64,000 nucleotides of DNA from a virus (IMGVR_UViG_3300021400_001610:18490-82489), one strand, 5' to 3'; positions 515 to 26,534 are shown, counted from the stretch's first letter. Notes: generated from the sequence alone by a model not told the origin. Program-made: numbers and translations.

Positions 515-686
515 TTGTTGTATCTATATAATACCATAGTATTATACGATTGTCAACTCCTTTTTATAAAGTTTTAATTTTCTGACAATTATATCGGCCC
601 GGGCGGGCGCCCGCATCGTCTAATAACGATATACGATATGCTCCGATGAAAAGATGGGAGCACCGACTTGGATGCTCCCGATTGGG

Positions 687-1046
687 TTACTCACCCTTTT
701 CACGCATTTCCTTTTTCTTCCTACGGATTTCTGCGTCACGTTCCATTTTCTTTTTCTTTTTCTCGGCGTTGGCTTTTGCCTTTTCTGCCTTTTCTTTCAG
801 TTTCATTTCGTATTCTTCTGCCATCGAGTAACCGTCATAGGGTTCTGTACCCTTGTTTGCTCCTGTGGGAACTTTTACGGTGATGACGATGAAATCCTCA
901 TTGCCCTCGCAACCAACAACGGGAATTGCGATTTCGTTGGACTTAACACGGAGAACTTCTTCATCAGACAGTTTAAACTGTTCCATAATGGACTGAAGAT
1001 AAGTTTCTCTCAACATTTCTCTTTCTACTTTTCTTGATACTGCCAT
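687..1046 (-). CDS. hypothetical protein with C-terminal Lys/Glu coiled coil
   Basis: 119-aa ORF, RBS AAAGGAG, own promoter, terminator hairpin 656-680. Confidence 0.8.
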   Translation of the reverse strand: MAVSRKVEREMLRETYLQSIMEQFKLSDEEVLRVKSNEIAIPVVGCEGNEDFIVITVKVPTGANKGTEPYDGYSMAEEYEMKLKEKAEKAKANAEKKKKKMERDAEIRRKKKEMREKGE

Positions 1047-1371
1047 TGTTAACTCCTTTCGTTCTTTCCTTTATCTTGACTAAAGTATATCACATAATTG
1101 GGGACTTGTCAAGACGAATTTGGGATTTTATGAAATTTTTTTACGAAGAAAATTTGCTTTCTTTCCTTATTTTCTATATATATTATATCATAAAATTTTA
1201 AATTTGTCAATAGATTTTAAGAAATTCAGAAAATTAAAATTATTTTGAATTTTCTGAAAATTCGGCGGCGCCCGGGCGAGTTGGAAATATCATCCAACTC
1301 GACCTGTCCTGTCGATCCATTCACATATTGCCCATACAACGAATGAAAGAATGAGAAGTATAATAGTCATT

Positions 1372-1653
1372 TTATTTCTTTCCTCTCTTTGTCTTTTTTA
1401 CTAAACTTTTATCGTATACTTTGTCAACGTTCCAATGGTCATAATAATCATTGTAGAATTGTTCCTCACCTTTTAGATATGGTTTGTCACACTCTCCGAT
1501 GTTGTAACCATATTCGTCTGCGATTGGTTTAACGTAAGAATCATAATTCTTTGCTGTAATTCCTTTTACCTTTGCGTCTACTTGGGAAGTAGAAACGGCG
1601 AAGATTGCGAAGATAATGATTGCTAATATAATTGTAAAGATTTTCCGTGCCAT
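1372..1653 (-). CDS. small secreted/membrane protein
   Basis: Start moved to MARKIF at 1653 after RBS GAAGGGAG; N-terminal hydrophobic signal-like segment. Confidence 0.7.
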   Translation of the reverse strand: MARKIFTIILAIIIFAIFAVSTSQVDAKVKGITAKNYDSYVKPIADEYGYNIGECDKPYLKGEEQFYNDYYDHWNVDKVYDKSLVKKTKRGKK

Positions 1654-1714
1654 TGTCTCATCTCCCTTCTGTAAGTATATGATACTACAAAAGGATTGAC
1701 TTGTCAACCCCTTT

Positions 1715-1936
1715 TTAATCTTTTCTTAAAATTTTTAATTGATATTCGTTTAACCAATATTTACTATACTCTTCAAAATCTAAAGTATCAGAACGTAAAT
1801 CTCTTGCAATTGCATCTATTAATACAAACTCTAAAGAAGAAATATTTAACGATGTTAAATAGTAAGGGGTGAGACAAAAATCTTTGGAAAAAATTGCGAG
1901 TGTTTCATCTTTTTTTGTTAATTGATAAATAATCAT
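1715..1936 (-). CDS. hypothetical protein
   Basis: 73-aa ORF with RBS AAAGGAG and own promoter. Confidence 0.6.
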   Translation of the reverse strand: MIIYQLTKKDETLAIFSKDFCLTPYYLTSLNISSLEFVLIDAIARDLRSDTLDFEEYSKYWLNEYQLKILRKD

Positions 1937-2061
1937 TGTTTTTCTCCTTTCTCTATCATGTTTATTATACTTTAAAAATAAAGTTCTGTCAACCCCTTTT
2001 AATAAGTTAATTTTTTAACGATCGGCCCGGGCGCGGAGCACGGGAGCATGCTCCCGAACTC

Positions 2062-2727
2062 TTACGCAAAACATTTTTTTCTCATGGGTTTATGTTGACG
2101 CATACAGTGGACAAAGATTTCTTTTTCAATCAATACATCTTCAAGTCCTGTGTGAGATTCGATGAAATCATTATCCCCTGTGATGTATCTATAAAGAATT
2201 TCTGCGGTTTTTCTGACCCTACCATTTTTTGTAAGGTATCCGTTGGTATAACACCATTCCTTATAGTGAACTTGTTTACAAATGGTATCATTTGCCATTT
2301 TCATTGTGTCCCATAATTCAATACCATAGGGGAGGAAAAATCTGTATTTTGATTTTGTGATATAACGCTGTGTTTTAGATGTTGACTTGTAATCGAATCT
2401 TGCGTTGTGTGCGATTGCGACCTTTACATTATATTTCTTACATACATCTGCAAAGATTTTTCTTGCTTCGTAAAGGCTGACAACCTCACGCTCGCCATTT
2501 TTAATCTGCTCGTAGTATTTCGGAATTTTGTCTGCGTAGTATGCTGATTTCATTAATTCTCTCATTCCGAAGAATACTTCACGAATTACGAATGAATACT
2601 TTTCGTATACATTACCCATTTTGTCAATGATGGCGAACCCTAAATCATATACGATGGGGTCATCGAGTCCGTTGGCTGTCTCTGTATCGAATACTACATA
2701 ATACTTTTTACGTCTGTCAATCTTCAT
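2062..2727 (-). CDS. DEDDh 3'-5' exonuclease (DnaQ-like)
   Basis: ExoI VVFDTET, ExoII AHNARFD, ExoIII HTGLED; start moved to MKIDRRKK. Confidence 0.9.
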   Translation of the reverse strand: MKIDRRKKYYVVFDTETANGLDDPIVYDLGFAIIDKMGNVYEKYSFVIREVFFGMRELMKSAYYADKIPKYYEQIKNGEREVVSLYEARKIFADVCKKYNVKVAIAHNARFDYKSTSKTQRYITKSKYRFFLPYGIELWDTMKMANDTICKQVHYKEWCYTNGYLTKNGRVRKTAEILYRYITGDNDFIESHTGLEDVLIEKEIFVHCMRQHKPMRKKCFA

Positions 2728-2880
2728 TTTGTTTTCTCCTTCCGTTTTCTTTCCTTTGAACAATTATATATTACCATATAGGACGCAAGAAGTCAATACC
2801 TTTTTTTAAATTTTTTAAAGACGAAATATTCTGACAATGGGAGCACGGCGCCCGGGCGAAGACGAACAGATGTTCGTCTT

Positions 2881-3000
2881 CTATTTAGTCTTCAAAATGA
2901 AATACATTATTATTAGACCTATGATTGTGCCTACCCCTACTGCCGAAAAAGCTTGTAATGTAGTTAGAGTAGAATCGTGGATGAAATATAGAATAAACAT
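2881..3000 (-). CDS. 39-aa single-TM membrane peptide
   Basis: MFILYFIHDS...GVGTIIGLIIMYFILKTK after RBS AAAGGAG. Confidence 0.55.
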   Translation of the reverse strand: MFILYFIHDSTLTTLQAFSAVGVGTIIGLIIMYFILKTK

Positions 3001-3058
3001 TTTTTCTCCTTTTTTCTTTATTATACTACAAAAGGGTTGACTTGTCAACTCTTTTTTA

Positions 3059-3241
3059 TTATTTTTCTTCTTCATACCATACTTTATCAATCACTAAATT
3101 GTCTATCAACTTTTCGGGATTGTCTAAAATGTAATTCATTACCGATTCTTTATTGCTGGAATCTGTGACTATTTCAAAATCTTCTTTTTCTCCATCACAA
3201 GTTAAGTCAAACTTAATTGTAAATTCGATGTGCTGTATCAT
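3059..3241 (-). CDS. acidic hypothetical protein
   Basis: 60-aa ORF, RBS GAAGGGAG, own promoter. Confidence 0.65.
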   Translation of the reverse strand: MIQHIEFTIKFDLTCDGEKEDFEIVTDSSNKESVMNYILDNPEKLIDNLVIDKVWYEEEK

Positions 3242-3300
3242 TTTTCTATCTCCCTTCTGTGATTATATGTTATCACATTTGATGTCGTTTGTCAAGTCTT

Positions 3301-3465
3301 TTAGCACATTTTATCTTTACCAGTTTCTGTATCTGTAACACAAACTTCTCCATCTACATCTCCATCGGTTAAAGAAATAAACTTTTCTGCGGCTTCTTCA
3401 TAAGAATCAGCGTCAACATACCCACTAATGATAAAACTGCCTGATACAAAGTAAATTTTACTCAT
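3301..3465 (-). CDS. acidic 54-aa hypothetical protein
   Basis: True start MSKIYF at 3465 after RBS GAAGGGAG; the upstream extension in the ORF track crosses promoter and terminator. Confidence 0.65.
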   Translation of the reverse strand: MSKIYFVSGSFIISGYVDADSYEEAAEKFISLTDGDVDGEVCVTDTETGKDKMC

Positions 3466-3604
3466 TTTCTTTTCTCCCTTCTTTATCTTATCTATATTAT
3501 AGCAAATGGATCGACTTTTGTCAACCCTTAAATTAAAAAAAGAATATTCTGAAAATTTACGTCTTCGGCGCCCGGGCCGCGAACGTATGTTCGTGATCGA
3601 GTCT

Positions 3605-3635
3605 AAAAAAAAGAACGGACGTTTTGTCCGTTCTT
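3605..3635 (-). terminator. intrinsic terminator
   Basis: Stem AAGAACGGAC/GTCCGTTCTT plus U-run on minus strand, directly after the 3644 stop. Confidence 0.75.
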
Positions 3636-3643
3636 TTCTATCG

Positions 3644-3973
3644 TCAAGCGAGTGCGTAACCCTTGACCTTACCCTTACCCTTGACCTTGATTTCACTTAC
3701 TACGAGTCCATCAATCTGACGAAGCAACGCACTTGCTTTCTGCACCGAGATTTCAACCTTTTCGGCAACCTCTCCTGCGCTCTGCGGTTCGTGAGTGAGA
3801 ACTTCCTTAATCTTCGCCTTAATCGGCTCGTTAGCGATTGCGGTCTTGGAAGGGGAGTTCTTCCGCTTTGCGTTCTTCTCATCCATCTTGATGATTTCGC
3901 TCTTTGCCATTTCGATGACTTCTGCGTTTACGTTACCGTTGATGATTGCTTCGAACATTTCTCTCTTAGTCAT
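3644..3973 (-). CDS. winged-helix DNA-binding protein, MTKRE family paralogue 1
   Basis: MTKRE N-terminus, ISxQKASAL helix, KVKGKGK wing shared with 4745, 8204, 13356. Confidence 0.85.
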   Translation of the reverse strand: MTKREMFEAIINGNVNAEVIEMAKSEIIKMDEKNAKRKNSPSKTAIANEPIKAKIKEVLTHEPQSAGEVAEKVEISVQKASALLRQIDGLVVSEIKVKGKGKVKGYALA

Positions 3974-4162
3974 TTCGTACCTACTTTCTCGTGAAGGTCA
4001 CGACCCTTTTTAACTACTTGGGAGTTCCTGTCTCCCCTCTCTGTGATTATATATTACCATACTTTATTGAGTTTGTCAATACCTTTTTCAAAATTTTTTA
4101 TTAGTTATTTTTTTCACAAGGCGGCCCGGCAAAAGACGAACATATGTTCGTCATATTTTACC

Positions 4163-4333
4163 CTATACATTTTTGCTGTCATCCAAATTAAAATATTCTC
4201 TGATCCAAAATTCTTTTCCGCACTCGCAACAACGTGCTTTTGCTAAAACTCTAATATAGTCTCCGTAATAATCATATTTTTCTATATAGATTATTTCATA
4301 GTCTTCTGAATTACAATTTTTACATTTTGCCAT
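4163..4333 (-). CDS. 56-aa Zn-ribbon protein
   Basis: Manually translated MAKCKNCNSEDYE...RCCECGKEFW; two CxxC pairs; RBS AAAGGAG. Confidence 0.6.
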   Translation of the reverse strand: MAKCKNCNSEDYEIIYIEKYDYYGDYIRVLAKARCCECGKEFWIREYFNLDDSKNV

Positions 4334-4347
4334 TTTATTTTCTCCTT

Positions 4348-4494
4348 TTAATCTTCTGTCTGTAAATAAACACTATTAGCAATTTCAACTGTTTTAATTG
4401 GAATATAATTTTCTTCAAGTTTGTCATAGACAAATACATTCATATTCATATCATAACTATCTAAAAGTTCGTTAATAAGTTCTCTTACTGTCAT
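4348..4494 (-). CDS. 48-aa hypothetical protein (MTxRELIxEL family)
   Basis: Manually translated MTVRELINELLDSYD...; RBS and promoter; N-terminus similar to 10312-10464. Confidence 0.6.
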   Translation of the reverse strand: MTVRELINELLDSYDMNMNVFVYDKLEENYIPIKTVEIANSVYLQTED

Positions 4495-4744
4495 TTTTTC
4501 TCTCCTTTCTGTGATTTTATTCTATCACATTTTATCTTGTTTGTCAAGACCTTTTTTCAACTTTTTTATTTTGTTTTTTCTCTCCTTTCTTCTTGACAAT
4601 TATATTATAAACGAAAGTCAAGAAAAAGTCAAGAACTTTTTAGGATGTATATTGTATACATGAAGCGGGCGCCCGGGCCACCGTCGGAATATTCTGAAAA
4701 TTTACGGCGAAAAAAAAGAGGAGCAAGTGCTCCCCCCTTTTCTT

Positions 4745-5092
4745 CTATGCTACAGAGTAACCTTTCTGCTTACCCTTACCCTTTACCTTAACTTCTACTG
4801 CGGAAAGCTGACCATCTGTGACCAACTGTCTGCAAAGAGCACTTGCTTTCTGCGTGGAGATTTCCAACTCTCCTGCGATTACACTTGCCACAATCGGCTC
4901 ATTCTTACCGCCGAGGAACTCGACAATCTTTGCCTTAATCGGCTCATTGGCAATCGCTGTCTTTGACGGAGTGTGGGAACGCTTTGCATTTCTTGCGTCC
5001 ATCTTCTCGATTTCCGCCTTTGCGAAGTCTGCGATTTCGATTACATCAACGTTTGCGATTACTGCGTTCAGAAATTCTCTCTTAGTCATCAT
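4745..5092 (-). CDS. winged-helix DNA-binding protein, MTKRE family paralogue 2
   Basis: SKTAIANEPIKAKI, ISTQKASALCRQL, EVKVKGKGKQKGYSV. Confidence 0.85.
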   Translation of the reverse strand: MMTKREFLNAVIANVDVIEIADFAKAEIEKMDARNAKRSHTPSKTAIANEPIKAKIVEFLGGKNEPIVASVIAGELEISTQKASALCRQLVTDGQLSAVEVKVKGKGKQKGYSVA

Positions 5093-5209
5093 TTTGGTTT
5101 CCTTTCTGACCCTTTAGGTGGTTGTCATCCCTTTCCTTTATCTTGACTTTATTATATCACCTTTTCTTTGACTTGTCAAGACTTTTTTTTAGAACTTTTT
5201 TAATTTTTT

Positions 5210-5273
5210 TGGTGGTTTACCGTCACCACCGTTTTATGTTACGGCTTGGGGAGCATCATCTTTACTATCTCCC
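5210..5273 (-). ncRNA. candidate small structured RNA
   Basis: Own promoter (TTGACA 5313-5308, TAATAT); hairpins GGGAG/CUCCC, CCGU/ACGG and GGUGGU/ACCACC (the last two overlap); only a 6-codon ORF. Confidence 0.3.
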
Positions 5274-5460
5274 TTGTTGTATATATATTATCACTTATGA
5301 CCCTATTTGTCAACAACTTTTTGCTATGTATTTTGTATACATGATTTCTTTTACGCTTTAGTGCGGTGAAGCGGCGCCCGGGCCGAGCAAACGTATGTTC
5401 TTTTGTGGAGTAAAAAAATAGGGCAAGACGCGTCCGTCTCGCCCTCGTTCCTATCCACTT

Positions 5461-5592
5461 TCAGAACGTTGCGCCTAATTGCTGTCGCGCCCGCGGTGGA
5501 AGGCTATGGCGCGGTGAGTTGGTACCACTCACTATTCGGCTTACATTTCTGTCATCGCGCCTTGCCATCGGCGCTTCGGTATGAACTTTCAT
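5461..5592 (-). CDS. 43-aa GC-rich small ORF (or structured RNA)
   Basis: RBS AAAGGAG, promoter, MKVHTEAPMARRDD...; terminator hairpin ~5419-5446. Confidence 0.35.
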   Translation of the reverse strand: MKVHTEAPMARRDDRNVSRIVSGTNSPRHSLPPRARQQLGATF

Positions 5593-5636
5593 TTGAGTTA
5601 TCTCCTTTCTGTGATTATATATTATCATATTTGGTA

Positions 5637-5828
5637 TCATTTGTCAATAAGTTTTCTCGTATATATCAAATATTCTTCTGCTGTCATCTCTTTTATTGTG
5701 GCCTTATCATCACAACTATCAAACCAATAATCAATCATATAATTAATAGCGCGATTTTTGTTGATGAAACGCCCAACTATATCTCCATTTGTGTTAATTA
5801 CACAATATAATCTTTTTACTTTTTTCAT
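5637..5828 (-). CDS. hypothetical protein
   Basis: MKKVKRLYCVINTNGDIVGRF...; start could be the GTG at 5834. Confidence 0.6.
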   Translation of the reverse strand: MKKVKRLYCVINTNGDIVGRFINKNRAINYMIDYWFDSCDDKATIKEMTAEEYLIYTRKLIDK

Positions 5829-5900
5829 TTTCACTTGGATTTCCCCCTCTCTGTGATTATATATTATCATATTCGATGTGGTTTGTCAAGTGTTTTTTTA

Positions 5901-6110
5901 TTATTTTCTCATTGCGTCACAGTAATATTTATAAATTTCATCGAAAGTATATTGATAACCGCAATCACAATTGACTACATGATGCATAGCAACGTATTCA
6001 TTGCCTTTATGCGTAAAGAAATCAAAATCTTCTATAGTAGATTCGTAGTCATATCCGCCACACTTGGGACAACCATCAAATTCTTTATAATCTTTAAATT
6101 TAATTTTCAT
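5901..6110 (-). CDS. Zn-ribbon protein
   Basis: CPKC ... CDCG pairs; RBS AAAGGAG; architecture like 4163-4333. Confidence 0.7.
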   Translation of the reverse strand: MKIKFKDYKEFDGCPKCGGYDYESTIEDFDFFTHKGNEYVAMHHVVNCDCGYQYTFDEIYKYYCDAMRK

Positions 6111-6146
6111 CTTTTTATCTCCTTTTCTTTTTGTGATTATATATTA

Positions 6147-6323
6147 TCACATTTCTGCAAGTTTGTCAAGTGCTATTAATAATCTTTTCTTATTTTTATA
6201 AAGTCTATTGTTTGTGCAATACGTACAAGTGCCATGATTTCTGCAAGTATGATCGATTGCCTTTGAACCATAATACTTTTTTCTTTTCTCTTTTCTATGT
6301 TCAATCGCCTTGTCAAGTGCCAT
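6147..6323 (-). CDS. small basic Cys/His phage protein
   Basis: SKAIDHTCRNHGTCTYC motif; start moved to MALDKA after RBS GGGAGG. Confidence 0.7.
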   Translation of the reverse strand: MALDKAIEHRKEKRKKYYGSKAIDHTCRNHGTCTYCTNNRLYKNKKRLLIALDKLAEM

Positions 6324-6454
6324 CTTATTTACCTCCCTTGCAATTATATGATAACATATCACTTCTACTTTGTCAACCCTTTTTTAAATGTTTAAATATT
6401 CTGAAAATTGGCTTCGGCCCGGGCGAAAATGATGCCAAAAGGCATCATTTTTAT

Positions 6455-7090
6455 CTATTCAGGAAGGCAACTTGCTCCAATTCTATCACAACCCATTTCA
6501 ATATATTTTTCCATTTCTTCACGAGTACGAATACCGCCACTTGCCTTAATTTTCGTATCATTATGAATGTTTGCTTTCATAATTTCGATGTCTTTGAATG
6601 ATGCACCGCGAGTTCCAAACCCTGTGGAAGTCTTTACATAGTCTGCGGGAGTATTGTCTACAATCTTTGTGGCGATTGCGATTTCTTCATCAGTAAGATA
6701 ACAAGTTTCAATTATTACTTTCAGAATTACTCTATCATTCATTTTATTAATTCTGTCGTAAATAGTCTCGATTTCTTTTTTAATAAGATGATAGTTACCG
6801 TTTTTCATGTCTCCAATATTGATAACCATATCAATCTCATTTGCCCCATCGAAAACGGCGGATTCGGCTTCTTTAACCTTTGTCATTGTGTTACAATTTC
6901 CAAGAGGAAAACCCACAACTGTGCAAATTTTAAGTGTTGGGAAGAAGTTATAAACGAAGTCTACATAGTGAGAAGGAATACAGACAGAGGCACAACCCTT
7001 TTCTACTGCCTTTTCGCACAGATTCCAAATATCATTATTCGTTGCGGTTGCTTTCAGAAGTGTGTAGTCGATGTGTTCATAAATATTCAT
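6455..7090 (-). CDS. deoC: deoxyribose-phosphate aldolase
   Basis: DYTLLK, VGFPLG, GANEIDMVIN, KVIIET, Schiff-base VKTSTGF, KASGGIRT, RIGAS. Confidence 0.95.
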   Translation of the reverse strand: MNIYEHIDYTLLKATATNNDIWNLCEKAVEKGCASVCIPSHYVDFVYNFFPTLKICTVVGFPLGNCNTMTKVKEAESAVFDGANEIDMVINIGDMKNGNYHLIKKEIETIYDRINKMNDRVILKVIIETCYLTDEEIAIATKIVDNTPADYVKTSTGFGTRGASFKDIEIMKANIHNDTKIKASGGIRTREEMEKYIEMGCDRIGASCLPE

Positions 7091-7224
7091 TGTTGTTTCT
7101 CCTTTCCTTTATCTTGTCTATATTATAACAGAAGTATTTCAATTTGTCAACTATTAAATTGTATTAAAATTGTATTTGTCGGCGGCCCGGGCAAAACAAG
7201 TCGAAAAAAAATAGACCCGAAGGC

Positions 7225-7386
7225 CTATTCATAAGAAGAGATATCTATTAAATTTCCCTCATTATCAAAATTAAAACTAATACCACCGTAACTTGACATA
7301 CTGTCTATTTCTATAGAATTATTGTCTACATATACTATATTAGCCTTAATAGTTTCTAATATTCTTTTTAATTCTTCTTTTGTCAT
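7225..7386 (-). CDS. 53-aa hypothetical protein
   Basis: Manually translated MTKEELKRILETIKANIVYVDNNSIEID...; RBS and promoter present. Confidence 0.6.
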   Translation of the reverse strand: MTKEELKRILETIKANIVYVDNNSIEIDSMSSYGGISFNFDNEGNLIDISSYE

Positions 7387-7580
7387 TGTATTCACCTTTC
7401 CTTTCCTTTATCTTGTCTATATTATAGCAAACATCTTTTATTTTGTCAACCCCCAAATTAAAAGTTTTAATTTTCAGATAATTTTAGTGGCCCGGGCGCC
7501 ACGAACGTATGTTCGCAAATAAGTGAAGCGGTTCACTTTATGTAAACCGCTTCGTATAAGGAAAGGAGGAAGTTAGTTAA

Positions 7581-7838
7581 TTACATAATATGGATTTCAA
7601 ATTGTTCCAACATCGTCATTGCAACTAATCCAACGGTAATTCCTAACATGCAACCGTCTTTGATTTTGTCTGCAACGGGACGTTGAAGAACAAAACATCT
7701 TGTAAAGGAAAGAATGTTGGCGAACAGATAAACGAACTGTCCAATCAAGAAATCTGCCTTTACTACACACTGTGCAGTAATCAGAGTAATCAATACCAAG
7801 TAATTCAATTCTTTCCATACCATCTGAAATTTAGTCAT
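7581..7838 (-). CDS. small multi-TM membrane protein
   Basis: Three hydrophobic segments in 85 aa; terminator hairpin GAAGCGGTT/AACCGCTTC at 7525-7553. Confidence 0.7.
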   Translation of the reverse strand: MTKFQMVWKELNYLVLITLITAQCVVKADFLIGQFVYLFANILSFTRCFVLQRPVADKIKDGCMLGITVGLVAMTMLEQFEIHIM

Positions 7839-7885
7839 TCTCTTTGTTTCCTTCCTTGTTTCTTTCTGATACTATTATAACGCAT

Positions 7886-8026
7886 TTATGCGATGTTGTC
7901 AACCTTTTTTTGAAAATCTTTTAAAAGATTTTCGAGATGAACTTTCTGCATCTTCTCAAAAGCCTGTCTATTCGGAATCAGTGTTGTATATTTCTCTAAT
8001 TCGTTTACGATTTCCTTTTTAGTCAT
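7886..8026 (-). CDS. 46-aa hypothetical protein
   Basis: Manually translated MTKKEIVNELEKYTTLIPNRQAFEKM...; RBS GAGAGG. Confidence 0.55.
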   Translation of the reverse strand: MTKKEIVNELEKYTTLIPNRQAFEKMQKVHLENLLKDFQKKVDNIA

Positions 8027-8203
8027 TTCTTTTTCCTCTCTTTCTGTAATTATATGATAACACACTTTCCCATAAAAGTCAACCCCTTTTTCATATTCAT
8101 AATTTTCTGAAAATTAGTTGCGCCCGGGCGCCTGTCTGAATATTCTGACAATTAATTTCCAAAAAAAAGAAGGGCGATTTGCCCTTCCTTTATTTTCCAA
8201 AAA

Positions 8204-8548
8204 CTAACAGACGCTATATCCCTTCTGTTTGCCCTTGCCCTTAACCTTAACCTCAACGGCAGTCAGTGTACCACCTTCTACCATCTGCCGACAGAGTGCG
8301 GAAGCCTTCTGAACAGAGATTCCGACCTCTGCGCCGATTGCACTTGCCGTGATAGGCTCGTCACAATCCTTGAGGAAGTCTGCAATGGCAACCTTGATAG
8401 GCTCGTTTTCCTGTGCCTTCTTGGACACCGTTGCTCTACGCTTTTCGTTCTTTGCGTCCATCTTTACGATTTCGGATTCTGCGAACTTGATAACTTCGTC
8501 AGTGATGTTGCCTGCGATAACCATTTCCATCATTTCTCTCTTAGTCAT
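8204..8548 (-). CDS. winged-helix DNA-binding protein, MTKRE family paralogue 3
   Basis: Start moved to MTKREMM at 8548; VGISVQKASALCRQM, EVKVKGKGKQKGYSV. Confidence 0.85.
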   Translation of the reverse strand: MTKREMMEMVIAGNITDEVIKFAESEIVKMDAKNEKRRATVSKKAQENEPIKVAIADFLKDCDEPITASAIGAEVGISVQKASALCRQMVEGGTLTAVEVKVKGKGKQKGYSVC

Positions 8549-9105
8549 TTTGTACCTTCTTTCTTGCGTTGGTCGCAACCCTTTTTCATTAGTTTTAGGA
8601 AGTTCCTGTCTTCCTTTTTCCTTTTGTGTCTTTATTATATCAGATTTTCGGAAATCTGTCAAGACCTTTTTTAACTTTTTTTGAAAAACTTTTTATTTTG
8701 GGAGAAGTTTTTCTATTTCCCTTTTCTGTATCTTTATGATAACATATTTTCGGGATTTTGTCAAGGGGAAAATTTCTTTTTTGTTGAGAAAGACGCATCT
8801 TTTTTCCGCTCACGCTCAACATTCTCGGAATAGTTTTTCTTTCTTTCCCCTTGACAATTATATTATAAAGGAATTTTCTAAAAAAGTCAACCCTTTTTAT
8901 GAAAAAATTATAGAAAAATAATTCTGAATTTTGGGAACTTTCAGAAAATTCTGAAAATTTTCGGCGCCCGGTCGATCCGAATTATGGGAAATTATGGGAG
9001 TGGGCGATCGCCCGGGCGCACTGTGCGTCAGAATTTTCTGAAAATTTGCAGAAAAATAAAGGTCCCATTATGACTAATGGGACAATTTTCCAAGAATTTT
9101 GGGAA

Positions 9106-9237
9106 TTACATCAACACTGTGAAAATATTCCAAAACGATAACGGACAACCCTCTAAATTCTTTGAAAGAATTTCGATGTATGAAGCGGTGAACCAAACAC
9201 CAAAAGCGATTAACGGCGTACATAAAATCTTTTTCAT
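9106..9237 (-). CDS. 43-aa hydrophobic peptide
   Basis: Manually translated MKKILCTPLIAFGVWFTASYIEIL...; start overlaps the stop of the upstream ORF. Confidence 0.55.
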   Translation of the reverse strand: MKKILCTPLIAFGVWFTASYIEILSKNLEGCPLSFWNIFTVLM

Positions 9238-9470
9238 ACTAACTGCCACCCCCAAGATTCCTGTGCATCAAGAAAACCCTTGATAGTCCAAATTGCTTTC
9301 TTGATGTCTTCTCTTTCAATAATTTCGCCTGTGTAAATGTTTTCCAAACATTCCGCATCATCGGCGTCCATTGCCGTTGCAATTTCTTTGAGTACGTATT
9401 CGCCGAAAGCGAGCCACGCCCTATCATCCTGTGTGATTGTCATTACGATTTTCTTGTCAAACTGTGCCAT
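9234..9470 (-). CDS. acidic hypothetical protein
   Basis: Start moved to MAQFDKK after RBS AAGGAG. Confidence 0.7.
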   Translation of the reverse strand: MAQFDKKIVMTITQDDRAWLAFGEYVLKEIATAMDADDAECLENIYTGEIIEREDIKKAIWTIKGFLDAQESWGWQLV

Positions 9471-9675
9471 ATCTTTTCTCCTTTCTCTCTCTGTGATTAT
9501 AATATACCACATATCACCTACACTGTCAACCCCTTTTTATAAAAATACTTCGTTAATTAATTCACAAGGCGGCCCGGGCGCTACGAACATATGTTCTCTT
9601 AATAAGGCGAGAACGAACAACCTTTCGTTGTCCGTTCTCTTTATATGTAAGGAGGAAACAAATGTCATTTCGTTT

Positions 9676-10119
9676 TTAGTTAATACCTTTCAAAACTTCC
9701 ATAATCTGACTTTCATCAAAGGCTTCACCCTTCCAATTATTTCTATTCGGTGTTTCATCATCGAACAGAATACCGTTGGGGAAGTTTACTACTTCTTCTT
9801 TCGGTGTACCATATTTTACAATGTGGATTTCATCGAAGTGAACGCTTTTCAGATGTGCTTTGAGCCACTGAATTTTTGTTGTTGTGACCTTTTCATCGAA
9901 TTCGGCGGTGGAATTCTTTGCCAACCAACTTACGATTCCGATTGTATATCCTTTTCTCTGAAGATTGTTGAGAACCTTTGCGAGTGCCGACAGACGCAGG
10001 AGCGGAGCTGCCTGTGCATACGGTGTAGCGTCTTCAGCTTTCAGATAGTCGAGCCATCCATTAACACCGTAGAAGTTTGCGATTGTTCCGTCCATATCGA
10101 AGTAGATTGCCTTGGTCAT
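9676..10119 (-). CDS. HAD-superfamily phosphatase, 5'(3')-deoxyribonucleotidase-like
   Basis: Motif I YFDMDGT, motif IV ILFDD. Confidence 0.8.
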   Translation of the reverse strand: MTKAIYFDMDGTIANFYGVNGWLDYLKAEDATPYAQAAPLLRLSALAKVLNNLQRKGYTIGIVSWLAKNSTAEFDEKVTTTKIQWLKAHLKSVHFDEIHIVKYGTPKEEVVNFPNGILFDDETPNRNNWKGEAFDESQIMEVLKGIN

Positions 10120-10311
10120 TTTGTTTTCCTCTCTTTCCTTTTCTCTATATAGAGTATATCAAAAATTTCTCGATTTGTCAACTATTTTTACCGATTCGGA
10201 AAATGTTTTTTAATTCTAAATATTCTGAAAATTGGCGGGCGCCCGGGCAGAAAGAACGTGTGTTCGTCCATGGCGCCCCGGGCGAAAAAAAAATAAGCCT
10301 TTCGGCTTATT

Positions 10312-10464
10312 TTAAAAGTAAATTACTACTTCATTTTCATTCTGTCTACTTTCTACTACTGAATAAATATCATCGTCTTCTGCGTTTCTTACTCTTGCAT
10401 TTTCGTCAACTTCTCCATTAGCTACCATTGCATTCAGTTCTTCAATCAGTTCTCTAATTGTCAT
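10312..10464 (-). CDS. 50-aa acidic hypothetical protein (MTxRELIxEL family)
   Basis: Manually translated MTIRELIEELNAMVANGEVDENARV...; RBS GAGG and promoter. Confidence 0.6.
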   Translation of the reverse strand: MTIRELIEELNAMVANGEVDENARVRNAEDDDIYSVVESRQNENEVVIYF

Positions 10465-10559
10465 TGTATTTACCTCTTCTTTCCTTATCTTGTCTTTATT
10501 ATATCACAGCTTCGCCAGCTTGTCAACAACTTTTTTTCTCCGGTTCATCCGAAGGAGGC

Positions 10560-11033
10560 TTATGCCTCCTCCGCCATCATCTTCATCATCTGTTTTTCGT
10601 TGATGAAGCTTGCTTTTTCAAACTTAATCTGATAAGCGATTCCATTTACTGTCAGGTCGCCGTCTTCGGTGAACGGTACATTGTCCTTTTCCCATTCCTG
10701 TCCGTTCAGCTCGGTCATCAGCTTTTCGAAAATCTCGCCTTTGTTGTACTTGCTTTCGCTTGCCAGCTCATCGAAGAACTTTTCGGAGCAGAGAACCTTT
10801 GCTCCCATGCTCATCAGCAGAGCTTTCTGACCTTTGTTCGGCTTGAACCGAAGTGCGTACCCAGCTCCACGGCTCGCCTTGTCCAGCTTCAGCAGCTCCG
10901 GCAGAATCTCAGCTGTCACGAGGACGAACCAGATATTTCCAGCAGCTCTGAATCCGAAAATGTAGTTGTGGGTGTAGCTATGACGATTGTAAAATCCTAC
11001 CATTTTTGCTTTGAGTGCGACGTTGGTTGACAT
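10560..11033 (-). CDS. putative PD-(D/E)xK-fold nuclease-like protein A
   Basis: Start moved to MSTNVA after AAAGGAG; NKGEIFE...DGDL...YQIK motif; homologous to 12289-12828. Confidence 0.7.
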   Translation of the reverse strand: MSTNVALKAKMVGFYNRHSYTHNYIFGFRAAGNIWFVLVTAEILPELLKLDKASRGAGYALRFKPNKGQKALLMSMGAKVLCSEKFFDELASESKYNKGEIFEKLMTELNGQEWEKDNVPFTEDGDLTVNGIAYQIKFEKASFINEKQMMKMMAEEA

Positions 11034-11109
11034 AATATGCTCCTTTCCAATTCCTACCAATCTCCCCCTGTCATAGACAGTTTACTACAAATACAAATAT
11101 TCGTCAAAT

Positions 11110-11743
11110 TGCATAGATATACATTGACCGTTGAAATTTCAACGTTTTTAGAACTTTATACATGAATATTCATGCATTATACATTGTATACAAAGTGCAT
11201 ATGCAAAAAACAGTGCATAATATACATGTTTATGCATAAAATCAAACCCGAAAACGTTGAAATTTCAACGTTTTTATGTATGTTCTTAAAAAACAATGAA
11301 TATTCATGGATTTTACCGATTATACATAAAAATAAATTTTCATGCACGCCCGGGCGGAATTGAACCGAAATCGGTTCGATTCATAAATGAATCGAACCGA
11401 ATCCGACTCAGTTAGTTAGTTAGATTGAACTAACTCGGTCCGGCGGTCGCCCTGCGTGCAGTATACTGTATACTGTATACCGCATACTGTATACACGACT
11501 GAATAGTCTGACAATTCTGAAAAGAACGTATGTTCGTGCATAAATATACACTTGTTCGCACCCGCGAACATCCGTTTACTATTCCGATAATTAGTTTATG
11601 CGGAATAGTTCAAGGGTGTGAAGCGGAGAAAACGTTGGAATTTCAACGTTTTCAACTATTCCGATAATTAGTTTTCTCGGAATAGTAAACAAATGTTCGC
11701 GTTTCGGTATGTATATTCATGCATACGAATGCATATCTATGCA
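11110..11743. promoter_or_regulatory. ArgR(ARG)-box-like palindromes TGMAT-N4-ATKCA
   Basis: Cores at 11110, 11163, 11223, 11297, 11537, 11710, 11730; the last two are a tandem pair with 20-bp period. Confidence 0.45.
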
Positions 11744-11895
11744 CGAACAGAACATATGTTCGCGAACAGACCATAAACATATGTTTGTATACTGTATACA
11801 CGGATACTGTATACTGTATACTGTATACACGTCAGAATAGTCTGATAATTGTTAGTTAGACGGAACTAACTCGAGTGTACTGTATACTGTATACA
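11461..11895. repeat. GTATACT heptamer tandem blocks / TGTAT-N5-ATACA palindromes
   Basis: Blocks at 11461-11495, 11786-11829, 11876-11895; the first two continue into a shared GAATAGTCTGA(C/T)AATT. Confidence 0.9.
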
Positions 11896-11916
11896 CAATA
11901 CAATGTAAGTACAATC

Positions 11917-12142
11917 CTTTAGTCTGATAAAGTGGTAACGCGTTAATGCGTTAGTCCTTTATCCCTTTAACGTACTAAAGTATACCAATATGGTATACTT
12001 TAGTACGTTAAACTTCTAAACTTTAGTAGACTAAAGTCTACTGTATTGGTAGACTTTAATGCGTTAAACTTCTGAACTTTAGTGTGGTAAAGTGGACCAC
12101 AGACGTACACTTTATTACGTTAATCCTTTAGTGTAATAAAGT
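11917..12142. repeat. iteron-like array CTTTA-N7-TAA(AG) with perfect 22-bp inverted repeat
   Basis: Units at 11917, 11965, 11998, 12021, 12054, 12077, 12110, 12126; perfect IR 11966-11987 / 11991-12012. Confidence 0.9.
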
Positions 12143-12214
12143 CCCTTGCAAGTATCATGCCAAGAGATATATTTAAGAGTGATTGAAAAAGATATATGAA
12201 TTGCAATTTATGTA

Positions 12215-12243
12215 TTGACGTATCCGGCAATATAGCATATAAT
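12215..12243 (+). promoter_or_regulatory. sigmaA-type promoter
   Basis: TTGACG-17-TATAAT upstream of 12289. Confidence 0.8.
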
Positions 12244-12288
12244 CTATAGTATCAGATAACACATTTGAATTGTAAAGGAGACGAAACA

Positions 12289-12828
12289 ATGACTACTAAC
12301 AGAACTACAATGAATAATGAAATCAAAATGGCTATCCTTGAAAAACTGTTTGCAGTAGAAGCAACTCACACCTATGGATTCGCTATCCGTGACAATGGCA
12401 TGGTTAAGGCGGCAATAGTTGAAAATGCCGATGATGTAATTCCCTTTATAACAGTATGCGAACGTAACTCAAAGTCGCACGGTGGCGTATACGGTGTGCG
12501 GATGTGGAATTCTAATAAAGCATTTGAGATTATCAAAGAGTATGCACGTGAGATTATTACACTTTGCACAGTAGAAGAATTCGAACGGCAGTTCAAAGAA
12601 GCAAAGGAAAATGGTTTCAAAGGCAATCGCGGTGACTTCTTCGAACCTACTTTTGCAAAGGCTACTGGAGCAAAACTGAATACAGTAAGAAACGAAAAAT
12701 GCACAGACTGCGGAGATGTGAACCTGAATGGAGAAGAAATCCAATTAAAACTGTGGAATGCCACATTGACCACCGAACCACAAGTAAATACATTCTATGA
12801 AAGAATGATTGCAAACAAGGCTGAGTAA
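12289..12828 (+). CDS. putative PD-(D/E)xK-fold nuclease-like protein B
   Basis: Start MTTNRT after AAAGGAG; NRGDFFE...CGDV...IQLK motif; terminator AAGGCT/AGCCTT plus T-run follows. Confidence 0.7.
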   Translation: MTTNRTTMNNEIKMAILEKLFAVEATHTYGFAIRDNGMVKAAIVENADDVIPFITVCERNSKSHGGVYGVRMWNSNKAFEIIKEYAREIITLCTVEEFERQFKEAKENGFKGNRGDFFEPTFAKATGAKLNTVRNEKCTDCGDVNLNGEEIQLKLWNATLTTEPQVNTFYERMIANKAE

Positions 12829-13355
12829 GCCTTGTTTTTTTTATGCCGTGAGCCTTTATTCTTTGATTTCCGCGACTTTGATGCCTACATTGAGTATTTA
12901 TACCATTAACGATAGAAAAGTCGCTTATATCGGCGAATACGGCGGGAGCACGGTAGTCTGTTAAATAATTAACAATTATGCTCCCGATGCTCCGATGCTC
13001 CGTTAAAAAATTAACAAACATGCTCCTGTTTTCGGGAAGACGTACCTGTAAATAAATGGAAGCCCTTGAGTTAAATCCCTCTAACTTTTGGGAAAATCTC
13101 CCATGGTATTTTTTACCACCCTCCAATTCTGACAACGAAATTTTTCGTGAAAAATTTAACAAAGGGCAAAAGATTTTTCTCGCCGAAGACAGAATTTTCT
13201 GACAATTCAAAGGCGGGGCGTAGTTTTCGGAATTGCGCGAATTGTCTGACAATTCAGCTCCTGAGCGTGGAAAATAATCTCCACGAAATCAAAATTTCAT
13301 TTACAAAAAGATTCAAATAAAAAAGAGAGCCTCAACCTTCGGCTCTCTTCAATCC

Positions 13356-13712
13356 TTAAACGTAATATGCTCTTCGAATTCCTTTCCCCTTAATTTTAAC
13401 TTCAGTCGCCCGTATACGCCCTTCGCGCACCAAACTTGTACAAATCGCCGTAAAACGCTGTCTCGTAAGCTCCGGCGCCACCTCGACCATTATATCGGCA
13501 ATCGTAAACGGCTGACCGGGATTACTTTGTAGGAGTTCACAAATTCGATCTCCGTAGGCCCTATTCTCCTTATAGAGTTCAGTTTCCTTCGATCTCGCCA
13601 ACGTCGCCGCCGCCTGAGCATTTAACTTTTTCAATTCCTTTTTACATTCTTCAATTAACTCTTCACTAATTTCTCCATGAATTACAGCTTCAAGCCTTTC
13701 TTTCCGTGTCAT
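13356..13712 (-). CDS. winged-helix DNA-binding protein, MTKRE family paralogue 4 (divergent)
   Basis: MTRKERLEAVI, LTRQRFTAICTSLVREGRI, EVKIKGKG. Confidence 0.8.
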   Translation of the reverse strand: MTRKERLEAVIHGEISEELIEECKKELKKLNAQAAATLARSKETELYKENRAYGDRICELLQSNPGQPFTIADIMVEVAPELTRQRFTAICTSLVREGRIRATEVKIKGKGIRRAYYV

Positions 13713-16611: not shown

Positions 16612-17919
16612 ATGAATAGGCTGAAGCTTGATTTTACTTTAGAGTCGGCAAAAGAACGAGTCGACTTTATTAATACATATATAAAACAATTTGATAACTT
16701 AACGGAGAAAGAAATTACGACTATTGAAGAATATTTGTTATGGGGTAAGGATGAAAATGGAATTGCCATTGGCGCCGGAACGGGATTAGAAACGAGATGG
16801 AGTAAACCAAAAGAAGCAGAATCGCTTGACGCAGTTTTAGAAAACCCAGCTTTAGCAAATAGTCAACTTTGTTCGTTGAATGATGCAGTTGTTTATAAGA
16901 AAAATAGAGACGTTTTTAATAGAAATGAAGCGAGAAAACAGGCTCCCTCGTTTATTTTACGGATTTTTGAAGATTTGTGGAGAGATATAGATGAAACGGA
17001 ATTGGAGATTAATTTCTACGAAGAAAGAACTGGAAAAAGAAAAAATCCACCAAGGGATGAACTTGTAAAACGCTTTACAAATGAAGAGGTTGAACTCATA
17101 CGTGCGCGCAGCAAAAAACTCAATCAATATAAGTATTTGAAGTTGAGACATAAGTTAAAAGAGTTAAGAGTTGAACAGTTTACAATTAGAGACTCTTATA
17201 GATCAACTTTTAATATCACTCAATCTATTTATAGTCCAAAAGAGAAGACTTTTGTTTTTGATTATGATGTAGAAGTTTTGCCGTTGGGAATTAAAGAAGG
17301 ACAGGTTGGATACTTAATTTTTGATACGAACTTTGACCCCGGCGCCCTAACCGAAAAACAGCTACGTATGATTAGTGATTTAATTTGGAAGAAAAAGAAA
17401 AATCAAAATGAAAGAATTTTTGACTTTAGAAATTTAGAGATGGTTTATCAACTTTACTTATTTAAAGAAGACTTAAATGATAGAGTTGAAAAAATTGATT
17501 ATGATCATTTGGTTGAGAACAATTTGAAAGGATTGATTGATACTTTAAAGTTTTATGAATCAATTGCTGACTTAACAGATATACAACGTGAGATACTGCG
17601 GCTGAAAGAACAAAAAAAGAAAAATACAGATATAGCCGCGTATATTAATGAAAAGTATGGAAAAAGCTATACTGCTAATTATATTAGCACTATTTTTAAA
17701 CAAAAAATTATTAGTAGAATTAATGAAGCAGTAAAACTTCATCAAGATACAATTGAAAATTGTTTCTTTGAAGAGAACTTTAAAGCATGCTGTGATTGCG
17801 GCAGAATTTTATTATTAGATAGCAGAAATTGGGTTAAAAAAGCTAGAAGCAAAGATGGCTTTCAAAATAGATGTAAGAGATGCGAGCACGAAATGAGAAG
17901 GAAAAAGAAGGGGAATTAG
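16612..17919 (+). CDS. putative transcription factor: sigma70-r4/LuxR-like HTH plus C-terminal Zn finger
   Basis: LTDIQREILRLK...DIAAYINEKYG HTH-like; CCDCG...RCKRC; promoter TTGACT(16563)-17-TATACT; start moved to MNRLK after GGAGG. Confidence 0.6.
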   Translation: MNRLKLDFTLESAKERVDFINTYIKQFDNLTEKEITTIEEYLLWGKDENGIAIGAGTGLETRWSKPKEAESLDAVLENPALANSQLCSLNDAVVYKKNRDVFNRNEARKQAPSFILRIFEDLWRDIDETELEINFYEERTGKRKNPPRDELVKRFTNEEVELIRARSKKLNQYKYLKLRHKLKELRVEQFTIRDSYRSTFNITQSIYSPKEKTFVFDYDVEVLPLGIKEGQVGYLIFDTNFDPGALTEKQLRMISDLIWKKKKNQNERIFDFRNLEMVYQLYLFKEDLNDRVEKIDYDHLVENNLKGLIDTLKFYESIADLTDIQREILRLKEQKKKNTDIAAYINEKYGKSYTANYISTIFKQKIISRINEAVKLHQDTIENCFFEENFKACCDCGRILLLDSRNWVKKARSKDGFQNRCKRCEHEMRRKKKGN

Positions 17920-18177
17920 ATGAAGAAAGGAAGAAGTAAACCAGAAAGACTTCTGGAAGAAATTATTAAATTAGACCATGTGCAGTTTCTTGGGATTTGC
18001 AAGATTTTAGATATAAAAATTTTTAAAGACGAAGAAAAAGGTAAAGATGCTGAACCAAAAACTTTTTATGAGCTATGGAGTGAGATGTGCGATGTGATTA
18101 ATGATATGAATCGCACTCGGCGCCGGAACTTAGCTAAATTGGTTTACGCAGCTACTAAAGAAGAAAAGGAGGAATAA
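17920..18177 (+). CDS. hypothetical protein
   Basis: 85-aa ORF tightly coupled to both neighbours. Confidence 0.7.
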   Translation: MKKGRSKPERLLEEIIKLDHVQFLGICKILDIKIFKDEEKGKDAEPKTFYELWSEMCDVINDMNRTRRRNLAKLVYAATKEEKEE

Positions 18178-18178
18178 A

Positions 18179-19168
18179 ATGGCTGTAAATCCACATTTTG
18201 ATATAGATTTTGAATCGAAGAAGTGTGTATGCTGCGGTCAGATGAAGGATTCTTTTTCTTTTTTAAGAACCAAGTCATTTATGTATCCGAGTGGATATGT
18301 AGATGTATGCGTTGATTGTCTTGGAGATAGATTGGAGAGGACTGAATATGATTGGAATGTGATGGATAAGATTTGTCAATATCTTGATATTCCTTTCGAG
18401 GCTCCTAAATTTGAAGAGCTACGATCTACTCATTCTGCGCCCGAGCTATTAAAAGCCTATAACTTAATATACTTTGGAGATGACTATGATGGAATTGATT
18501 GGAAGTCATATCAAGAAGCTTATAAGGAGCTGGAAGCCTCTGGCGCCCTCGACGAAGTAGCTGTACCGGGTATAGCTGAAGAACGTCGTCACCAGCTTCA
18601 AGAAAAATGGGGTATGAACTATGATGATGAGGCTTTAAACTATCTAGAAAACTTATATGATGGGCTTTTATTAACTCAGAATATCAACGGCGCACTTCAA
18701 GGTGACCAAGCCTTAAAGATTTGTAAAATTTCTTATGAAATTGATTGTCGAATCCGCGAAGGCGCTGATTTCGATAAACTTTTAGCTTCATATGATAAAT
18801 TGGTTAAAACTGGCGAATTTACTCCAAAGAATGTAAAAAATGCTAGTGATTTTGAATCAATGGGTGAACTTTGTCGCTGGCTTGAAAAGAAGGGGTTTGT
18901 TAATCAGTTCTATGATGGAGAAACCAGAGATGTGGTTGATGAGACTATAAAGAATATACAAAGTTGGAATCAACGCTTATATACGAATGAAAGTGGTATT
19001 GGTGATGAAATCAATCAACGTATACAATCTCTGAAGACTGCGGCCGAGCTAGAAACTTATTATGATGTAAATCCCGATGTGGATGATTATGATGAGTATG
19101 AAAATGAAGGCTTTGAAAAATTATTTAAAGATGAGGAGTTTGCAGTTGACCTCGAAGGAGGTGATTAA
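18179..19168 (+). CDS. putative terminase small subunit / packaging-associated Zn-finger protein
   Basis: CVCC...CVDC N-terminus, acidic tail, immediately upstream of TerL; function inferred from position. Confidence 0.5.
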   Translation: MAVNPHFDIDFESKKCVCCGQMKDSFSFLRTKSFMYPSGYVDVCVDCLGDRLERTEYDWNVMDKICQYLDIPFEAPKFEELRSTHSAPELLKAYNLIYFGDDYDGIDWKSYQEAYKELEASGALDEVAVPGIAEERRHQLQEKWGMNYDDEALNYLENLYDGLLLTQNINGALQGDQALKICKISYEIDCRIREGADFDKLLASYDKLVKTGEFTPKNVKNASDFESMGELCRWLEKKGFVNQFYDGETRDVVDETIKNIQSWNQRLYTNESGIGDEINQRIQSLKTAAELETYYDVNPDVDDYDEYENEGFEKLFKDEEFAVDLEGGD

Positions 19169-23852: not shown

Positions 23853-23869
23853 TAAACGGAGGATTTATT

Positions 23870-24439: not shown

Positions 24440-24455
24440 TTAAGGGGGTAATAAG

Positions 24456-25538: not shown

Positions 25539-25547
25539 TTGATACTT

Positions 25548-25575
25548 GGGGAGGGGAGGATTCCCCTCCCTATTT
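25548..25575 (+). terminator. intrinsic terminator after capsid gene
   Basis: GGGAGGGGA/TCCCCTCCC stem followed by ATTTTT. Confidence 0.8.
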
Positions 25576-25606
25576 TTAAATTTAGGAGTAAAAAGGAGTA
25601 GTTAAG

Positions 25607-26533: not shown

Positions 26534-26534
26534 G

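Follow-up and report, generated by a model that had tools for sequence, protein, structure and literature searches.

LexA-type boxes clustered away from promoters in the early region of an uncultured, apparently virulent Bacillota phage

Where LexA boxes are known on phage DNA, they serve mainly as switches placed on the promoters of temperate elements, among them GIL01, CTX-type phages and SPbeta. What, then, might such boxes do in a phage that looks virulent and in which none of them lies on a promoter? The question is raised by a 64-kb window comprising bases 18490–82489 of the 82,489-bp linear IMG/VR record IMGVR_UViG_3300021400_001610 (L001; completeness estimate about 70%), apparently from a large uncultured gut or rumen phage. 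Positions below are those of this window unless given as record positions. An initial annotation had marked eleven LexA (SOS) boxes between 2863 and 11787 and judged their placing to fit a LexA sink, looping or a roadblock better than simple repression. We report here that these boxes belong to an array of sites close to the LexA consensus, placed between early-gene cassettes, and we tentatively favour a role for host LexA as a removable roadblock behind the cassette terminators.

Nine exact GAAC-N4-GTTC cores occur in the window, against 0.55 ± 0.74 expected, and none of 100 shuffles reaches nine. Eight of them, at 2864, 3581, 4138, 7503, 9585, 10254, 11524 and 11750, carry RNRY spacers (in the same order AGAT, GTAT, ATAT, GTAT, ATAT, GTGT, GTAT and ATAT). 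These are the eight cores within 2864–11761 that had been annotated, with positions and spacers as described, and the three AAAC variants listed beside them were found at 5389, 11687 and 11775. The ninth core, at 12583 (GAACGGCAGTTC), lies within a coding frame (FERQF), has a GGCA spacer that is not RNRY, and is also found in the homologous gene of the relative G005; we dismissed it as a coding coincidence. CG flanks, described as usual, are so: a C precedes five and a G follows seven of the eight exact boxes. The boxes conform to the Firmicute LexA (DinR)/Cheo-box pattern, CGAAC-N4-GTTCG with an A/T-rich RNRY spacer, and the published Bacillus subtilis LexA operator consensus, as given in Table 1 of PMC8270828 (citing Au et al. 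2005), is CGAACATATGTTCG. Scored against this B. subtilis/Bacillus 14-bp consensus, the 82-kb record holds eight sites with at most one mismatch (0.03 expected) and 19 with at most three (3.5 expected). Sixteen of these 19 fall within record 17876–30263, a 12.4-kb early-gene region that makes up 15% of the record. The array extends to the left of the window, as a scan of the rest of the genome, suggested at the outset, revealed: four further sites, two abutting boxes and two more, lie just beyond its edge and form a second hub. A match at 8739 (ATAACATATTTTCG; three mismatches, two of them in the core half-sites) sits in a promoter spacer and is unlikely to be a LexA site.

The boxes are embedded in an array of early-gene cassettes at 576..11360 on the minus strand, served by about 25 consensus sigma-A promoters (TTGACA-17-TATAAT). 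Every cassette combines a consensus promoter and a strong ribosome-binding site with between one and three tiny genes. Along the direction of transcription, a junction consists of the previous terminator, the LexA box where present, a GCCCGGGC core, a CodY-like box where present, an A-rich tract and the −35 element; roughly half of the junctions include a LexA-type box. The GC core, GCCCGGGC(GCC), occurs in 17 copies in the record, all at cassette junctions within record 18141–29844, and 15 of them lie in the window at 597–11355. It often forms a 14-bp palindrome, GGCGCCCGGGCGCC, and the copies at record 18141–18235 lie left of the window; at junctions 1270, 2025 and 2850, a hairpin without a T-run directly adjoins the core. 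Matches to the CodY consensus AATTTTCWGAAAATT with at most two mismatches number 17 in the window (2.3 expected), 15 of them within 576–13254. Most lie between the GC core and the −35, and the perfect ones are at 1248, 8101 and 9032.

When IMG/VR was scanned for the pattern of GC core and box together, about 24 related low-GC viral contigs emerged, with 4–20 boxes each; the contigs come from rumen and goat-gut samples. The logo of the family, built from 212 boxes at 25 loci, reads C(77%)-GAAC-[A/G]-T-A-[T/C]-GTTC-G(85%); its flank and spacer positions, which had not been searched for, reproduce the LexA consensus, and the agreement extends to all 14 positions. The original identification of the motif as the Firmicute LexA operator thus appears sound. 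Where the spacer is asymmetric, it is found in either orientation with respect to the junction (ATAC 26, GTAT 15), which is what a symmetric dimer would lead one to expect. Other relatives fill the slots next to the GC core with GTTAGTC-N5-GACTAAC, with AATTGTCAGACAATT or with Rex-like TTGTTAA-N4-TTAACAA boxes, the last in L014 and L072. Three host-repressor consensus motifs (LexA, CodY and Rex-like) are therefore found in interchangeable slots, which makes host factors the likeliest targets. We infer that the boxes are genuine high-affinity docking sites for host LexA, and host LexA probably does bind them.

The arrangement is shared unevenly among relatives. Three of the four complete genomes have their boxes gathered in a single region of 8–12 kb (13 of 13 in G002, 15 of 16 in G004 and nine clustered in G005), and the fourth, G003, has only four scattered boxes. 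Box numbers range from 2 to 16 per record, and one locus of 11 kb has as many as 20. In L074, the closest relative (76–86% identical), the 10254 and 11524 boxes are retained through flank divergence and, beside 10254, a 10-bp indel, the 11524 box being identical; the number of tandem boxes at 11750 differs, with three exact boxes in tandem in L074. Cultured relatives (E3, KKP_3916, VRE9_4, Phass-1 and Sundance) have chance box numbers, one to three per genome. The nine clustered boxes of G005, at 48.5–60.9 kb, all carry the spacer ATTT/AAAT (GAACATTTGTTC), where a mix of ATAT and GTAT is found elsewhere; these boxes may have been copied recently or have adapted to another LexA. An additional GAAC half-site precedes about 30 of the 212 boxes by 5, 6 or 9 nt, in the stretch between terminator and box (for example ACGAACAAAACGAACATACGTTCG), in relatives that include L014, L072, L066, L024 and L080. 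A further motif, CCTCTTCAT, lies directly upstream of LexA boxes in L014 and L072 and in the −35/−10 spacer of several of their early promoters. It is the sole repeated motif that overlaps promoters and does not occur in the early region of our record.

The placing of the boxes relative to promoters and terminators carries most of the argument. With TTGAC-N17-19-TANAWT as the promoter pattern, no box overlaps a consensus promoter in this record or in the 24 related loci (107 box–promoter pairs), which upholds and widens the original observation. Nor, among these pairs, does any box centre fall in a promoter or up to 45 nt downstream of the start of the −35, where classical repression would place it. 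Box centres lie at a median of 73.5 nt upstream of the −35 (10th–90th percentile 54–111 nt, never zero), on the promoter-distal side of GCCCGGGC as had been noted; the box at 3580, placed by the initial annotation at about −90 to −105, has its measured centre at about −97. Helical phasing between box and −35 is not significant at 10.5 bp (R = 0.14, p about 0.26), and a peak at 9.5 bp (p about 0.001) is distrusted as it is uncorrected for the ten periods tried. The distance to the upstream terminator, on the other hand, is narrow. Fifty-three dereplicated boxes follow a terminator, defined as a hairpin of −8 kcal/mol or stronger with at least four T, and 39 of them (74%) start 11–15 nt after the T-run, with a mode of 11 nt and unrelated intervening sequences. 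At box-less control junctions, only 3 of 28 GC cores lie at 11–15 nt and 6 of 28 abut the T-run (boxed versus box-less junctions, Fisher p = 7e-8). A roadblock behind an intrinsic terminator, the mechanism proposed below, calls for a fixed distance, and such a distance is seen. The earlier statement that boxes come just after terminators thus holds for the family, with fewer cases in this phage.

The cassette boxes of the window differ in detail. CGAACGTATGTTCG occurs twice, each time with one mismatch: at 3580..3593, it starts 12 nt past the T8 run of the terminator at 3607-3640(-), with its centre preceding the −35 of the 3465(-) cassette promoter by 62 nt, and at 7502..7515, it has a hairpin on one side and the GC core at 7490 on the other. 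The AAAC variant CAAACGTATGTTCT at 5388..5401 (three mismatches) follows a T7 terminator run by 11 nt and stands beside the GC core at 5376, and CGAACATATGTTCT at 9584..9597 (one mismatch) lies 12 nt past a hairpin, beside the GC core at 9572. AGAACGTGTGTTCG at 10253..10266 (three mismatches) is flanked by two GC cores and preceded by a T9 terminator. In the remaining cases, the offset is 19 nt or the box is itself the hairpin. Thus, CGAACAGATGTTCG at 2863..2876 (one mismatch), 6 nt after the stop of a 39-aa gene at 2881-3000(-), lies inside a palindrome with a 10-bp stem and abuts the GC core at 2850, and its RNA hairpin is predicted at −15.8 kcal/mol (z −3.1). The perfect consensus CGAACATATGTTCG, with no mismatch, at 4137..4150 forms with its GAC/GTC flanks and a UUUU tract a terminator-like hairpin for the gene at 4163-4333(-) (−16.0 kcal/mol, z −3.3). 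Strong RNA hairpins are found only at these two boxes; the others fold at −2.8 to −6.7 kcal/mol, with z not significant.

Further boxes lie in a gene-free hub at 11061..12260, which contains many palindrome and repeat families together with four or five LexA-type boxes and may be an origin or control region. The cluster of four at 11.5–11.8 kb that had been pointed out is real. It includes AGAACGTATGTTCG at 11523..11536 (two mismatches), which adjoins a TGTATAC run and a CodY-like box; the AAAC variant TAAACAAATGTTCG at 11686..11699 (three mismatches), whose equivalent in L074 is TAAACGTATGTTCG; and a pair at 11749..11787 consisting of AGAACATATGTTCG (one mismatch) and, from 11774, TAAACATATGTTTG (AAAC, three mismatches), followed by a TGTATAC run and then a CodY-like box. 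A promoter scan of the hub gave 12 weak matches, against 7.3 ± 2.6 in shuffles; only that at 12215 is convincing, and none falls on a box. A composite with the same order, two LexA-type boxes, a TGTATAC heptamer run and the CodY-like AGAATAGTCTGAYAATT, stands at both ends of the array (window 11745–11850 and record 17870–17960). The relative L014 shares it, beside GGAGCTGC repeats like those at record 17700–17830. Three tandem 56-bp units built on CTTTA-N7-TAAAG palindromes occupy 11965–12132, immediately before the one plus-strand promoter of the hub that is strong (12215–12243), and may be iterons, a candidate marker of an origin.

Because the boxes are tied to the upstream terminator and only loosely to the promoter, we favour a roadblock over a sink or looping. 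The original preference for these three over simple repression is therefore borne out in part: the geometry favours the roadblock, phasing at 10.5 bp lends looping no support, and the sink, neither confirmed nor dismissed, is the main rival. On our reading, which we would put somewhat short of an even chance, host LexA would insulate cassettes or block polymerase behind their terminators, and could be removed by cleavage. The boxes would fill a dedicated slot at the 3′ end of a cassette, typically 11–15 bp past the T-run and before the GCCCGGGC junction. In an undamaged cell, bound LexA would stop read-through RNA polymerase at or near the U-tract, backing up termination and insulating strong early promoter units from their neighbours. 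Cleavage of LexA upon host DNA damage, possibly brought about by phage attack on host DNA, would remove the blocks, leading to more read-through and altered cassette expression, and the box clusters of the two hubs, one at either end of the array, may likewise gate what the hubs do. E. coli RNA polymerase stalls about 14 bp before a bound protein, and the offset of 11–15 nt is about that distance. CodY and CcpA roadblocks in Bacillus, and EcoRI-Q111 in E. coli, similarly halt RNA polymerase at a fixed distance upstream of the site. The roadblocks known to us lie inside transcription units, not systematically behind intrinsic terminators, and we know of no report of LexA acting in this way.

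Several points weigh against a roadblock. In this phage, an offset of 11–12 nt is seen in only three or four of the eight cassette boxes, and the sharp peak at 11–15 nt comes mostly from relatives. Four or five hub boxes and three boxes left of the window have no preceding terminator, and a roadblock is thus not the whole story. Each cassette has its own strong promoter, so a block to read-through is of doubtful benefit, and the minimum of 11 nt could reflect the terminator's need for downstream DNA combined with tight packing. LexA is not known to block transcribing polymerase in this way in Bacillota, and the stall distance of about 14 bp comes from E. coli work. Finally, the ATTT spacer in nine of nine clustered boxes of G005 makes recent copying or a different binder possible.

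A roadblock and a sink are not mutually exclusive. In a sink, LexA would be titrated away from the host chromosome by replicating genomes, each copy bringing 16 or more consensus-grade sites, the CodY and Rex boxes would trap their own repressors too, and SOS, amino-acid and redox regulons would be derepressed without any phage protein, the avoidance of promoters sparing phage expression. The eight sites with at most one mismatch are better than those of SPbeta with three to five (PMC8270828), and a decoy would suit the lack of promoter overlap in more than 100 pairs, the tandem or abutting hub boxes with no promoter or terminator close by, the widely differing box numbers among relatives and the presence of several host-repressor motifs side by side. 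A decoy, however, needs no fixed distance to a terminator, yet 74% of the boxes keep one, and orthologous junctions retain their own box type, which looks like cis regulation. A single incoming genome would also bring too few sites for early titration of LexA, and if the exonuclease-like protein, the 5′-nucleotidase and DeoC encoded in the array serve to break down host DNA, in a parallel with T5, derepression would gain little; we thus regard a sink as rather unlikely. LexA could, alternatively, act as an upstream operator of the next promoter, modulating early transcription from about −60 to −110 through interference or cooperation with binders of the GC core, CodY box or UP element, and early genes would then sense the SOS state. 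Each junction does have its own mix of LexA, CodY or Rex-like and other palindromes, and some boxes of G003 and L023 lie on the promoter side of the GC core, 22–33 nt from the −35. The Spo0A boxes of phi29 and Nf provide a precedent (PMC2731898). Against this, the distance to the −35 is broad and unphased, the box follows the upstream terminator instead, and no LexA action from such positions is known in Bacillota, all of which makes an upstream operator unlikely.

Could the boxes instead be read by a phage-encoded protein, such as a winged-helix paralogue, with the likeness to LexA a matter of mimicry or coincidence, as with SPBRE and MrpR? The repeated intergenic operators of SPbeta are bound by a phage master repressor (PMC10516654), about 30% of our phage genome is missing, and G005 uses a single spacer variant throughout. 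Four early proteins of 109–118 aa (3644-3973, 4745-5092, 8204-8548 and 13356-13712, all on the minus strand) are the only DNA-binding candidates in the early region, and a confident AlphaFold2 model of these paralogues (pLDDT 87) has three N-terminal helices and a C-terminal winged helix with a KVKGKGK wing end. The fold is generic, however, of the MarR/ArsR/PadR type at E 0.027 or worse, with no LexA among the matches listed. The paralogues are present in two to four copies in five of five relatives, including G003 and G001, which have only two to four scattered boxes; with copy number not tracking box number, we rejected them as the box binder. LexA_DNA_bind (PF01726) has no match at E ≤ 1 in the record, about 70% complete, and in five relatives its best matches (15.2 and 11.8 bits) stay below the 23.7-bit cut-off; the 15-bit match in G003, an 84-aa generic winged helix adjoining a GyrA-like gene, was set aside. 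A homologue of LexA's DNA-binding domain, of the kind represented by GIL01 gp6, is thus absent from the record and the four complete relatives at this cut-off. The search for a phage repressor behind the sites, proposed with the first annotation, likewise found no S24 in the record or these relatives and no HTH_3 in the record, and a Pfam scan of ten further small early proteins gave nothing relevant. Furthermore, the logo is of the host type at all 14 positions, and the adjoining CodY and Rex consensus boxes point to host factors; canonical CodY and Rex-like sites in neighbouring slots make chance mimicry by phage proteins unlikely. Overall, a phage-encoded binder seems very unlikely. The motif might, finally, be no operator at all and work through nucleic-acid structure, whether by forming terminator hairpins or by providing recombination sites at which cassettes are shuffled. 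The boxes at 2864 and 4138 do lie in extended palindromes of −15.8 and −16.0 kcal/mol, one of them followed by UUUU. With only two boxes folding strongly, structure alone is insufficient to explain the motif; a hairpin would predict compensatory change, yet CGAAC, GTTCG and the loop-equivalent spacer are strictly kept, and most boxes come after a separate, complete terminator. We consider this possibility highly improbable.

What kind of phage carries the array? Its record has genes for a terminase, a portal, a tape-measure protein of 3557 aa, a polymerase of the Pol III alpha type, a DnaB-like helicase and NrdD. The terminase shares 42% identity with its counterpart in Geobacillus virus E3 and also resembles terminases of Enterococcus, Alicyclobacillus and Brevibacillus phages and of the SPbeta type (YonF-like), from phages of 120–165 kb, which suggests a Bacillota phage distantly related to SPbeta and Geobacillus virus E3; window 2800–12000 had no megablast match among cultured phages. 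The lysogeny markers PF00589, PF00239, PF02195 (ParB) and PF00717 (S24) are unmatched in the record and in four complete relatives (115–140 kb, CheckV 100%, three with direct terminal repeats), and the XRE-type repressor family PF01381 (HTH_3) is unmatched in the record, to which that search was confined. The absence of recombinase, ParB and S24 from both, and of XRE from the record, therefore makes the phage look virulent and not of the SOS-inducible temperate type. To judge by its promoters, its ribosome-binding sites and NrdD, the host is likely an anaerobic member of the Bacillota. When species genomes were scanned for the terminase, the only matches were contigs of metagenome-assembled genomes (MAGs) with conflicting labels (Methanobrevibacter, 'Bacterium', Bacillales, Faecalibacillus and Clostridium), and none of the matched MAGs has a canonical CGAAC-RNRY-GTTCG site. 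Two MAGs with related phage contigs have a GAAC-N4-GTTT or GAAC-N4-ATTC box before lexA, which is only suggestive, and an Atlas look-up of DeoC returned mixed taxa. The early cassettes at 2062-2727(-), 6455-7090(-) and 9676-10119(-) carry genes for a phrog_20187 protein whose N-terminus looks exonuclease-like, for a DeoC-family aldolase and for an NT5C-like 5′-deoxyribonucleotidase, a set reminiscent of the pre-early functions of T5 in host-DNA breakdown. At the left end of the record (355–1013) are three tRNA genes (Lys-UUU, Ile-UAU and Gln-UUG), followed by genes of the RNA-repair type, whose products are an RNA ligase, two metallophosphoesterases and a kinase/HD protein.

Host-repressor operators on phage DNA are of a kind already known, and four systems bear comparison. 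SPbeta has about 10 SOS (LexA/DinR) boxes with three to five mismatches (Lazarevic 1999 and Au 2005, as summarised in PMC8270828); LexA binds three SPbeta promoter regions in vitro with a Kd of 3.9–12 nM, and the role of the boxes is described there as still unclear. Like SPbeta, ours appears to be a large Bacillota siphophage with a YonF-like terminase, a Pol III alpha-type polymerase and several intergenic GAAC-N4-GTTC boxes. SPbeta, on the other hand, is temperate, has its own repressor and recombinase, and carries its boxes scattered near or over promoters, whereas here at least 16 boxes lie within 12 kb, off promoters and linked to terminators, with no recombinase, S24 or XRE found. In the tectivirus GIL01, LexA and gp7 repress P1 and P3, and gp6, a truncated LexA homologue, activates P3 (PMC6182141, PMC4551915). 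Both phages have no dedicated repressor and would use host LexA boxes, including tandem ones, to read the SOS state, in our case as far as the sequence indicates. GIL01, a temperate linear plasmid prophage, has its boxes within promoters and encodes a LexA co-factor and homologue; here, the boxes avoid promoters and LexA_DNA_bind has no match over the cut-off. On the lytic Bacillus phages phi29 and Nf, Spo0A boxes act to repress replication as well as early promoters and let these phages read the state of the host (PMC2731898). They too are operators of a global host regulator near early promoters or origins of a virulent phage, such as would tie phage development to the physiology of the host, known in our case from sequence. 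The regulator differs, however, and their few boxes overlap promoters or origins and repress directly, with no terminator arrays. The SPBRE repeats of SPbeta are bound by the recombinase-like phage master repressor MrpR (PMC10516654). These are likewise conserved short intergenic repeats in a related phage lineage that serve, here putatively, as protein docking sites; unlike SPBRE, our motif matches a host operator, and no gene with a Phage_integrase fold is found in the record or the four complete relatives.

What is new here are arrays of consensus boxes behind terminators in a recombinase-free phage, which none of these systems shows, and a literature search of partial coverage for LexA-box arrays, decoys, and CodY plus LexA sites in lytic phages found no such arrangement. 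In the broadest version of our reading, which is possible but doubtful, a clade of large virulent phages from gut or rumen would wire its takeover region through host LexA, CodY and Rex operators in fixed junction slots, with no regulators of its own. LexA would act as a cleavable roadblock 11–15 bp behind terminators, the host's damage, nutrient and redox sensors would gate early read-through and timing, and multiplying genomes would also drain the repressors. Since the sites agree with the LexA consensus of B. subtilis and the promoters have the sigma-A consensus, the reading can be tested directly in that species. The signature of terminator, about 11 nt, CGAACATATGTTCG and GCCCGGGC also provides a search handle for such phages and a hint at their hosts. 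We have here a clade of apparently virulent, recombinase-free phages of 115–140 kb with 9–16 consensus-grade LexA sites per genome, none of them on a promoter. If LexA docks at these sites, they would represent a new viral use for a host repressor, which would serve either as a decoy or as an insulator that can be removed, and a protein-free route by which a phage may read or rewrite the physiological state of its host.

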